Below are positions 1-3,000 of a stretch of 13,521 nucleotides of DNA, in pieces; positions within the stretch are counted from its first letter, which is position 1; every line of letters starts with the position of its first letter. Made by a program: the position numbers. The DNA lies in IMG/VR virus record IMGVR_UViG_2703718869_000015; one strand, 5' to 3'. The DNA is from a virus. Lineage: Duplodnaviria; Heunggongvirae; Uroviricota; Caudoviricetes.

Positions 1-3000
1 CACGCTGACGCAGTCACCGGTCAGTGCCTTTGCGGCGGATAAACTGCATGTGACAGACATTACCAGAGGTGCGACTTACCCGGTACTGATAGACAGCATT
101 GCGGTGGAAGTGAACAGCACAGACACTGCGGCATGATAAAAAAACCGCCAGCGACAGGAATGGACGCTGGCGGTGGTGATACCTATGGAGAAAAAATAAA
201 GGAACGATACTTTCGTACTCTGGTTTTTAATGAAAACAGTTCTTATTGTCAACAATAGCGGAAAGAAATTATGACATTTCTGAACCAGTTAATGCTGTAC
301 TTCTGTACGGTGGTCTGTGTGCTGTATCTCCTTTCGGGTGGGTACAGGGCCATGCGTGACTTCTGGCGCAGACAGATTGACAAAAGGGCCGCTGAGAAAA
401 TCAGCGCCAGTCAGTCAGCCGGAAGCAAACCCGAAGAGCCGCTCATTTAGCGGCAACTTTCTTAATCACACCTTTCGACGAGAAAATCCCATGTCAGAAA
501 TTACATCCCTGGTCACTGCAGAGGCAGTGAAGGACGTCCTGCGCTCTGAAGAAGTCCGGAGCGCACTGAAACAGAAACTTCGCCATAACCTGGAAGCGCG
601 TCTTGATGCAGAAGTGGATGCCATTCTGGATGAACTGCTTGGTGTACAGGCAGAGCCACCGACTGAAGCGGGAGATACCACCGCAGAGAGCGGTGAAGTT
701 CAGCCTGAATCACCGGTCGCCGATGCGACTGAACCTCAACCCGAATCGGTCATGATGCTGTAACGGGGAGTCAGGGCCATCAGTAAACAGCTGCTGGCCT
801 TTTTCATGTTGTGAGCTTCCGGATTGCGGGAGACGGGGTATGTACCAGATGGAAAAAATCACAACAGGTGTGTCATACACCACGTCAGCGGTGGGAACGG
901 GCTACTGGTTCCTGCAGTTGCTGGACAGGGTTTCCCCGTCTCAGTGGGCGGCAATAGGCGTGCTGGGGAGTCTGCTGTTTGGTCTGCTGACGTACCTGAC
1001 GAACCTGTATTTCAAGATTAAAGAAGACCGGCGTAAGGCGGCGCGGGGAGAGTAAGCTGATGAGCAGGAAATTCCGCTATGGTTTATCAGCGGTAGTTCT
1101 GGCGCTGATTGCCGCAGGTGCTTCTGCGCCTGAAATCCTCGACCAGTTTCTGGATGAAAAGGAAGGTAACCACACCACGGCATACCGTGATGGTGCGGGG
1201 ATCTGGACCATCTGCCGTGGTGCCATTCTGGTGGATGGTAAGCCTGTTATTCCTGGCATGAAGCTGTCAAAGGAAAAATGCGACCGGGTTAATGCCATCG
1301 AACGTGACAAGGCGCTGGCATGGGTGGAGAAAAACATCAAAGTGCCGCTGACCGAACCCCAGAAAGCGGGGATCGCGTCATTCTGTCCGTATAACATTGG
1401 CCCCGGTAAGTGTTTCCCGTCGACGTTTTATAAACGAATTAATGCAGGTGATCGAAAAGGTGCCTGCGAAGCGATTCGCTGGTGGATTAAGGACGGTGGC
1501 AGAGACTGCCGTATCCGTTCAAATAATTGCTACGGTCAGGTCTCACGGCGTGACCAGGAGAGCGCGCTGGCGTGCTGGGACATCGACAGATAGCAGAATA
1601 TTTTCCTGAAAAATGACGTTGGCCAACGCGGGTGGATAACACGAAATCCTGAAAACTGGTAAAACCTAAGTGAATAAAAGTAAAAACCCCGTTTGTTGGC
1701 AGCAAGCGGGGTTTTGTGTTTTCTGACCTTGAGTAAGGCAAGGGAGAAATTATGGGTAGGGAGGTACTTTCCCTGTGAGGAAGTATAAAAGATTCTTTCT
1801 GAGGTTGTCCATTATGAAAGGCATTGAAGTGGAGACGCCAGCCAGTCTGGATTTAACAAGAGCGGCAGCTTTTGCCATTCGTATTGTGGCCATTGCTGTT
1901 CTGGTCTGGGCAATCCGTTGGTGGTGATATGAACCGTGTTCTGTGCGTGGTTATCATTGTCCTGCTGGTGGCCTGTGGTGCGCTTAGTCTGGGGCTGAAT
2001 CATTACCGTGATCACGCCATCATCTACAAAGAGCAGCGCGATAAAAAAGCCAGTGAGCTGGAGCTGGCGAACGCGACAATTACTGATATGCAGATACGCC
2101 AGCGTGATGTCGCTGCACTTGATGCCAGATACTCGAGGGAATTAGCCGATGCGAGAGCTGAAAATGAAACTCTGCGTGCTGATGTTGCCGCTGGTCGTAA
2201 GCGCCTGCGGATCAACGCCACCTGCTCCGGTACCGTGCGTGAAGCCACCGGCACCTCCGGCGTGGATAATGCAACCGGCCCCCGACTGGCAGACACCGCT
2301 GAACGGGATTATTTCATCCTCAGAGAACGGTTGATGACAATGCAGAAGCAGCTGGAAGGGGTACAGGACTATATCCGCACTCAGTGCCTGAACTAAGTTT
2401 TGCTGATGCGCCGTATCGTCGCTGTATTCCCTCATTAACAGAGACCGCAGCCCGACAGGGAGACTACTCTGCGCGAGTGTGCGGGGATAATCAAAAACGA
2501 TGCACACCGGGTTTTCTCATTTTTCACGAGATGGGAGCGATTTCCCGCGAAGCCGCCTGTCCGGTGCGGTGGTGGAAGAAACCGGATAAAACAACCGCAT
2601 TGTGCAAATATCGATCAAATATGGTGCTGCTGTGTGAAATCTGAAAAATCACAGCGGTCATTATGCATCAGTTTTTAACACAGGACGTCAGAACGTGACA
2701 TGGCAAAGCTGGACTGGAAAAAGCTGGAGCAGGCATTCCGACGCGAACATGCCGAAACGGGAATAACATTACTGGACTGGTGCCGGAAGAAAAAGATTAA
2801 TTACAACACCGCCAGAACCCGTATAAAAATGGGCAAAATCGATCATGAAATTGATCATAAAACCGATCATGAAATCGATCATGACATCTCAGATGAAGAA
2901 CCCTGCAATGACGCGGGTTCCGGCGATGAAAAATGCGCAAAAAACTCTGAAAAAAACTGCGCAAATTCGGCAGAAACGAAACGGATTCGTGGTTCCCGAC

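Follow-up and report, generated by a model that had tools for sequence, protein, structure and literature searches.

A DUF826 protein encoded ahead of the pinholin of a Shiga toxin phage and the esterase-headed cargo block to which it belongs

Does a small acidic protein encoded just ahead of a phage holin gene belong with the lysis genes that follow it or with the cargo that precedes it, and what might it do there? This question is raised by the IMG/VR virus record IMGVR_UViG_2703718869_000015, a stretch of 13,521 nucleotides from a Caudoviricetes virus (hereafter the window), in which an open reading frame (ORF) for 90 amino acids (491..763, + strand, ATG start and TAA stop) lies upstream of the holin gene S. 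A first-pass annotation had placed this ORF, a preceding ORF for 59 amino acids and two bracketing hairpins in a moron-like slot, and had proposed for the acidic product, said to belong to no recognisable family, either a DNA-mimic or other anti-defence role or the timing of lysis. Both ORFs and both hairpins are found where that annotation located them. The 90-aa protein is a real feature, yet one already catalogued and annotated as DUF826, and the comparison of loci presented here shows that its gene is the last of a three-gene cargo block, nanS-p-DUF1378-DUF826, closed by a conserved intrinsic terminator. What is new at the level of the block is modest, namely that the esterase-DUF1378-DUF826 arrangement is common to lambdoid and Mu-like prophages and that it is polymorphic.

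DUF826 as the last gene of an esterase-headed block

The window reads as the late region of a 933W-like Shiga toxin 2 (Stx2) phage, its first 1100 bases being 99.9% identical to those of many Stx-converting phages, among them Stx2 phage I, PA28, 75/02 and 7888, with 99.4% identity to 933W. On the + strand, the 3' end of nanS-p is followed by DUF1378, DUF826, S, R, a non-coding stretch of 335 bp, Rz/Rz1, and the terminase and head genes. The nanS-p end (1..135, + strand) belongs to a SASA-family sialate O-acetylesterase, the first gene of the cargo block; it is 100% identical to the PA28 esterase over window positions 2-133 (tblastn), the region is named 'SASA family carbohydrate esterase' by RefSeq, and the full-length gene encodes the Pfam domains DUF1737, SASA and DUF6645. 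It is followed by the gene of a 59-aa DUF1378 family protein (PF07125; 271..450, + strand) and by DUF826 (PF05696). S (840..1055, + strand), a P21-type pinholin of 71 aa with a dual Met1/Met4 start (Pfam PF04971, E = 7e-33), opens the lysis cassette and stands outside the block.

Across 80 IMG/VR viral loci the order esterase-DUF1378-DUF826-S is fixed, with an esterase in each of the 67 loci that have sufficient upstream flank, and non-Stx lambdoid prophages, such as those of ST131, have the same gene order. The distance to S is nearly constant as well, since 72 of the 73 loci with sufficient downstream flank have 79-86 nt between the DUF826 stop and the start of S and the remaining one has 133 nt. 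This invariable position in lambdoid phages favours a rival explanation, in which DUF826, together with DUF1378, would bind the basic cytoplasmic tail of the S21-type pinholin or tune its triggering in an antiholin-like manner and thereby modulate the timing of lysis. Furthermore, the C-terminal tail of S is basic, opposite in charge to the strongly acidic DUF826, and DUF1378 is a small single-pass membrane protein resembling many lysis regulators.

The linkage to a holin does not hold, however, outside the lambdoid phages. A distant tailed DUF826 homologue (P0120, 40% identity) is encoded in Mu-like prophages with the order tail-fibre assembly gene, gin-type invertase, SASA/DUF6645 esterase, DUF1378, DUF826, com, mom and prophage end; there, the pair lies between gin and com/mom, and no holin is found in the fetched flanks of the block. 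More generally, distant tailed members (38-47% identity) retain the order esterase-DUF1378-DUF826, and the Mu-like variant of the block is present in 207 of 5426 complete Escherichia coli genomes, O157:H7 included. These Mu-like prophages (L003-L006, L100), which carry the block at their right end, occupy varied chromosomal sites, near gyrA, near an acyltransferase/AMP-binding gene, near bcs genes or in puuB, and their esterase is devoid of the N-terminal DUF1737 domain.

The pinholin is also found without the pair. Phage records with a P21-type holin number 436 and those with DUF826 306, which leaves about 130 records devoid of the pair. In enteropathogenic E. coli (EPEC) E2348/69, prophage PP2 (L096, NC_011601.1 743266-743712) has the order esterase-PasA-holin with both DUF1378 and DUF826 missing, and in prophage PP5 (L099), where both are missing too, the esterase lies beside PasC and insertion sequence (IS) elements. 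The esterase-holin junction of the PP2 type, at full length, occurs in 671 of the 5426 complete genomes and that of the window type in 567. Allele identity to the window points in the same direction: across loci, the values for the esterase, DUF1378 and DUF826 are intercorrelated (r 0.56-0.58), whereas those of these three upstream genes are uncorrelated with that of S (r 0-0.11).

The Mu-like context, the P21-type holin records without the pair and the lack of allele correlation with S thus assign DUF826 to the esterase-headed block. By this comparison of loci, the block recombines as a unit apart from the pinholin-endolysin-spanin cassette and is dispensable for it. The lysis-timing idea of the first-pass annotation is weakened accordingly, by Mu-like prophages that carry the block with no holin in the fetched flanks, by the many P21-holin phages and the 671 genomes with an esterase-holin junction but no pair, by DUF826 alleles that are unlinked to the holin and by a conserved terminator standing between DUF826 and S. 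Moreover, S21 has its own dual-start antiholin, and the obligate linkage to a holin that would mark an antiholin is not seen for DUF826. We therefore regard a modulator of lysis timing as unlikely.

The boundary between the block and the S leader is formed by an intrinsic-terminator-like stem-loop (773-801, + strand) followed by a T5 run (802-806). The fold of this right hairpin alone is unexceptional (-16.5 kcal/mol, z = -1.2); it is kept in about 30 sequence variants, and of the 12 pairs that RNAalifold predicts for them, 3 show compensatory double changes. EPEC PP2 retains a homologous hairpin immediately ahead of its holin gene despite lacking the pair, and Mu-like loci have a different terminator after DUF826. 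We infer that the hairpin acts as an insulator halting non-antiterminated transcription before it reaches a lethal downstream gene, which would be S in lambdoid phages and com/mom in Mu-like ones.

The segment downstream of the late regulatory region and ahead of S had been described as a site for acquired cargo, and its content in relatives, namely stx, tRNAs, nanS-p, IS elements and sRNA (small RNA) genes, bears this out. Presence/absence polymorphism is likewise seen across related prophages, some of those with an esterase-holin arrangement having the DUF1378/DUF826 pair and others missing it. The description of the locus as a moron slot is thus correct as to the polymorphism and the downstream terminator; it does not extend to a promoter of its own, which was not found upstream of the pair, and the mobile unit is larger than supposed, comprising the esterase as well as the pair. 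Two altered loci may be mentioned here. In Sakai (L095/L101, VT2-Sakai, Sp5), IS629 is inserted at the 3' end of nanS-p and DUF1378 and DUF826 are intact, and O55:H7 DEC5B (L098) has a rearranged locus, with DUF826 reduced to a truncated pseudogene amid esterase fragments.

The DUF826 protein and its DUF1378 partner

Contrary to the view that no family could be recognised, the 90-aa protein scores 101.6 bits on the Pfam DUF826 profile (PF05696; cut-off 25, E = 2.6e-29), its residues 1-68 aligning with positions 1-70 of the 75 of that profile, and it also matches PHROG 311 at E = 2e-37, a group that PHROGs classes as of unknown function. The L0106 locus of 933W matches it with 100% identity (tblastn), as do many Stx phages; the gene corresponds to H0120 of VT2-Sakai and to ECs_1211 of Sakai Sp5, and RefSeq already labels the product 'DUF826 domain-containing protein'. 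The family is tiny: 1.84 billion representatives, searched exhaustively by profile, gave 54 cluster representatives at E <= 0.001. Its members, ~60-100 aa in length, lie in phage or prophage contexts, and the named sequences come nearly all from E. coli or Shigella, a species range that rests on protein searches. When close and distant members are aligned, the invariant or near-invariant columns are V13, K14, S19, V22, K27, A40, V42, D43 and G51. Beyond one passing sentence in PMC10462455, DUF826 was not found named in the literature searched, and searches by locus tag (L0106, Z1467, ECs1208/1209) gave unrelated papers only.

Database entries of 127-154 aa, the 'long forms', and PHROG 8301 could be taken for natural DUF1378::DUF826 fusions and hence for a sign of interaction, a possibility that was considered and rejected. 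Indeed, the DUF826 frame is open upstream across most of the DUF1378 gene (window 317-763, + strand), and the long entries (P0012-P0057) begin at an upstream GTG or ATG, their extensions being out-of-frame translations of DUF1378. The 933W L0106 annotation also spans the DUF1378 match; these entries, apparently including L0106, look like gene-calling artefacts. Two single-member sequences, P0008 and P0113, appear frameshifted and lend no support to a fusion.

Judged by its pattern of evolution, ORF 491-763 is a genuine protein-coding gene. The sample comprised 90 loci with 41 distinct DNA alleles and 32 distinct proteins. Frameshifts in close relatives had been named as a point on which the ORF could fall; as far as coding is concerned, the homologous gene is intact in 90 of 90 loci, and all length differences are multiples of 3. 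Among close alleles, the N-terminal 51 codons have 6, 5 and 29 variable sites at codon positions 1, 2 and 3, respectively, with a ratio of non-synonymous to synonymous substitution rates (dN/dS) of 0.10, and the tail has a dN/dS of 0.47 and many in-frame indels. Divergent alleles retain a Shine-Dalgarno sequence upstream of the DUF826 ATG, and protein similarity at 38-47% identity remains where the DNA can no longer be aligned.

This mode of evolution bears directly on an explanation at the level of RNA, according to which the protein would be incidental and the locus would provide a regulatory 3'-end RNA, made of the 3' part of the gene and the terminator, or would serve as an insulator or spacer. 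The retention of the terminator even where the DUF826 gene is missing, a neighbourhood rich in sRNA genes and the fast evolution of the tail-coding DNA would all suit such a function. However, strong purifying selection on the N-terminal domain at the protein level, a reading frame that survives all indels and a protein similarity that outlasts DNA alignability argue against it, as does an Rfam search of the DUF826 region, which gave no match, and we consider a function at the RNA level only as highly improbable.

The helical head and the acidic Glu/Asp/Pro-rich tail described in the first-pass annotation are both recovered. An AlphaFold2 model built on a 17-sequence alignment predicts a short helix (residues 10-17) and a long one (residues 20-49) with predicted local distance difference test (pLDDT) values of 80-95, and pLDDT falls below 50 for residues 56-88. 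The Pfam match, the model and dN/dS support a conserved N-terminal helical domain (residues 1-51; 491..643, + strand), followed by a predicted disordered tail that is acidic, Pro-rich and free of Lys and Arg (residues 52-90; 644..763, + strand) and ends in VMML before the stop codon. The whole protein has an isoelectric point (pI) of 4.17 and a net charge of -13; the tail accounts for a net charge of -9, with 23% Asp/Glu, 15% Pro and no Lys or Arg. In tailed alleles the composition is kept (0 Lys/Arg, 18-24% Asp/Glu and 15-20% Pro) and length, from 30 to 50 aa, and sequence vary, and among those aligned the C-terminus reads MML, MMM or TML in the lambdoid alleles, AMM in the Mu-like one and TTL in L009. 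The best 19-residue hydropathy of DUF826 is 0.60, against 1.98 for DUF1378, which indicates that it has no transmembrane segment, and no signal peptide is seen by eye; for these two reasons, DUF826 is likely to be cytoplasmic.

The 59-aa ORF matches Pfam DUF1378 (PF07125) at 134 bits (E = 2e-39). It has one N-terminal transmembrane helix (residues 3-21, at the hydropathy maximum) and a basic C-terminal tail, with a net charge of +4 over residues 25-45. DUF1378 lies upstream of DUF826 in 80 of 80 viral loci, with a gap of 44 nt in 73 of them, and the two co-occur at about 1:1 in phage records (309 with DUF1378 and 306 with DUF826). Linkage and charge together suggest that DUF826 and DUF1378 constitute a membrane-associated pair. 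A hairpin over the DUF1378 stop codon (438-454), examined as an attenuator, is not conserved in other alleles and was discarded.

Distant DUF826 members without a tail, which consist of a core of 59-61 aa, occur in prophage contexts without esterase or DUF1378. In some of them (L002 4950-5180; P0122, P0126, P0136, P0147), a conserved Trp-rich extension (MWITQWLFSHNQPKE, MWLDWLFSRKQPEE, MWIKDWLSGHKTQKE) can be read ahead of the core at the N-terminus; it may be a membrane-interacting segment of their own that replaces a separate DUF1378 partner.

Transcription of the block and an antisense small RNA candidate

A consensus scan of window positions 1-2500 found no + strand sigma-70 promoter upstream of the pair, a weak promoter or one not of the sigma-70 type being possible. 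The hexamer TTGACA at 377-382, considered by eye as part of an internal + strand promoter for DUF826, is without a usable -10 element and was rejected, and the sole good promoter in the gap between nanS-p and DUF1378 points to the minus strand, where it would drive the sRNA candidate described below. As no + strand promoter of its own was found, the pair is not a self-contained moron. Mitomycin C raises nanS-p expression by 1-2.4 log, in parallel to stx2a (PMC10462455). Because of this induction and of the lack of a detected + strand promoter, late Q-dependent read-through would be the simplest source of mRNA for the block.

The left hairpin (144-173; -22.6 kcal/mol, z = -5.2, 0 of 200 shuffled sequences as stable) had been taken to bracket, with the right one, the two small ORFs. 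Both hairpins exist and the right one is terminator-like, as described above; the left one has a T-run on the minus strand only, so that it would terminate a minus-strand RNA rather than bracket the ORFs. A further modest novelty is that it appears to belong to an antisense gene for a candidate Hfq-type sRNA (136..252, minus strand), with promoter, body and terminator all lying in the nanS-p/DUF1378 gap. The candidate promoter has a perfect -35 element, TTGACA (252 to 247), a 17-nt spacer and the -10 element TAAAAA (229 to 224), and the predicted transcript of ~80 nt (about 216 to 137; -24.4 kcal/mol, z = -5.4) ends with the stem 173 to 144 and a U7 run. Most of 39 variants, a Mu-like one included, likewise have promoter, body and terminator; the variants differ in the sequences of the terminator stem and have the UUCUCCAU motif in common.

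This slot and this antisense orientation are those of PasA and PasC of EPEC (PMC8550237 Table S6; bioRxiv 10.64898/2026.05.13.724894), Hfq-dependent sRNAs encoded between the esterase and the next gene, with the enterohaemorrhagic E. coli homologues EcOnc51/52 (PMC8550237 Table S6). Identity with PasA was rejected, the alignment with E2348/69 PasA being poor outside the terminator, and the candidate is therefore assigned to the PasA/PasC positional class only and not counted as a member. Identity with Esr41 was rejected as well; the Rfam Esr41 match is weak (28.1 bits against a gathering score of 102, E = 0.069), and Esr41 proper is encoded in SpLE1 (PMC5286369).

Downstream of S, the + strand of the window carries the lysozyme gene R (1060-1593) and Rz/Rz1 (1929-2396 and 2149-2334). 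The R-Rz gap (1594-1928) is a stretch of 335 bp without a long ORF, at a place where 933W, PA28 and Sakai have the ant antirepressor gene. Within this gap lie a strong hairpin of the terminator type (1683-1715, 15 pairs), with GTGTTTT after it, and a small ORF (1814-1927, 37 aa with a hydrophobic C-terminus) that abuts the start of Rz; this ORF has no Pfam match and the stretch no Rfam match, and similar small ORFs are present ahead of Rz in relatives.

Proposed role of the pair and comparison with known systems

We propose that DUF826 and DUF1378 are a membrane-associated pair, held together by helix docking and provided with a binding arm in the tail, that serves the esterase block. This reading is tentative, plausible but somewhat short of probable, and its weight lies mostly on the assignment to the module and less on the molecular detail. 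In this scheme, the conserved helical N-terminal domain would be the working part of DUF826 and would probably dock on, or co-assemble with, the basic cytoplasmic tail of DUF1378, encoded about 40 nt upstream, and the acidic Pro-rich tail, free of Lys and Arg and with a hydrophobic tip, would provide a flexible arm for electrostatic tethering or partner binding. The pair would serve the esterase module, for instance in its localisation, release or control, and not host lysis, and its expression would come chiefly from late transcription antiterminated by Q, in common with stx and nanS-p. A more specific version holds that DUF1378 and DUF826 form a dedicated two-protein device for NanS-p, which is devoid of a signal peptide; it could, for example, combine a small holin-like gate and a cytoplasmic regulator that release NanS-p, or target it to the membrane, independently of the lysis cassette. 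This would explain why the three genes move jointly among lambdoid and Mu-like phages with a terminator of their own; we rate this specific version as quite improbable.

Several observations weigh against a pair that serves the esterase. No experiment or homology was found that gives DUF826 a function, and the interaction with DUF1378 is deduced only from linkage and opposite charge. Searches with the protein gave no NCBIfam match, 0 families at E <= 1 for DUF826 or DUF1378 among PADLOC profiles, nothing below E = 0.1 in a profile search of PDB sequences (best E 0.12 and 0.31, noise) and, with Foldseek, 0 PDB hits for the DUF826 model and nothing in BFVD at E <= 0.001; fold searches are poorly informative in this case, because the model consists of one long helix and disorder. 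PP2, PP5 and the 671 genomes with a PP2-type junction have the esterase without the pair, which shows the pair to be dispensable for the esterase. Distant DUF826 homologues that lack the tail are found where neither esterase nor DUF1378 is present, and the linkage of the block in Mu-like phage could be a simple co-transfer of a DNA segment. Finally, in uninduced Sakai, a microarray study (PMC2241611) gives ECs1211 a log2 change of -3.29 (~10-fold down) upon entry into stationary phase, when stx2 rises; the neighbours ECs1210 and ECs1212 are not among the entries covered. This signal hints at some RNA that is independent of the late operon; it may reflect a separate stable RNA over the gene, or cross-hybridisation, which is possible with a median of 3 copies per genome.

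That regulation opposite to stx2 would suit a true moron expressed in the lysogen, acting in superinfection exclusion, anti-defence or host physiology, with the acidic tail as a decoy, for example in the manner of the tail of the single-stranded-DNA-binding protein (SSB). The presence/absence polymorphism of the pair, the terminator placed directly after DUF826 in two unrelated phage backbones, where it shields lethal downstream genes, and the acidic tail with its hydrophobic C-terminal tip in the aligned tailed alleles are in line with such a role. Nevertheless, no + strand sigma-70 promoter was found upstream, the position of DUF826 is that of a late-operon gene, the microarray probe may cross-hybridise with paralogues, and neither the defence profiles nor anti-defence-like folds gave a match. 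The acidic part is moreover disordered and Pro-rich, unlike a folded DNA mimic. The DNA-mimic or anti-defence idea of the first-pass annotation is thus left without support, given that PADLOC, PDB and fold searches returned no match, that the acidic residues lie in the disordered tail and that the gene sits in the late operon; since its charge is in that tail and no similarity to structures or defence profiles was found, a folded DNA mimic is unsupported. We judge a moron of this kind, expressed in the lysogen, to be unlikely.

The immediate consequence is one of classification: DUF826 is best viewed with the esterase cargo block, DUF1378 and the candidate antisense sRNA gene, and not with the lysis cassette or with anti-defence. 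In the best-studied Shiga toxin phages, a few hundred bases separate its gene from stx2 and nanS-p, and roughly one complete E. coli genome in five carries it, mostly in several copies. If the pair controls the release or activity of NanS-p, this would bear on the use of mucus sialic acids by Shiga-toxin-producing E. coli; if it has no measurable effect, DUF826 would be one more conserved phage ORF.

Among known systems, the closest is the family itself. DUF826 (PF05696)/PHROG 311 members such as 933W L0106, VT2-Sakai H0120 and Sakai ECs1211 agree with the 90-aa protein in N-terminal domain, in size and in location ahead of S in Stx and other lambdoid prophages; nothing sets it apart from them, and the family has no assigned function. 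Acidic mimics and decoys such as T7 Ocr and ArdA have a low pI (about 4.1) in common with DUF826, and the C-terminal tails of SSB (SSB-Ct) and of T7 gp2.5 are similar to its acidic tail with hydrophobic end in design only. No sequence, profile or fold match links it to any of these; Ocr and ArdA are folded mimics, whereas the charge of DUF826 resides in a Pro-rich disordered tail and its gene is a late-operon and not an early one.

Lysis regulators such as P1 LydB, T4 RI/RIII and the antiholin S21-71 are, like the present pair, small proteins adjacent to a holin, and the combination of an acidic soluble protein and a small membrane protein is reminiscent of them; DUF826 differs in having no sequence or fold similarity to them and in a linkage to the holin that fails in Mu-like prophages. 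Phage morons (bor and lom of lambda, gp15 of HK97) resemble the locus in being a variable late-gene insert with an intrinsic terminator that is present or absent in related prophages. Unlike them, the pair of the window has no promoter of its own that could be found, the mobile unit comprises three genes along with a candidate antisense sRNA gene, and nanS-p, at the head of the block, is induced with the late operon.

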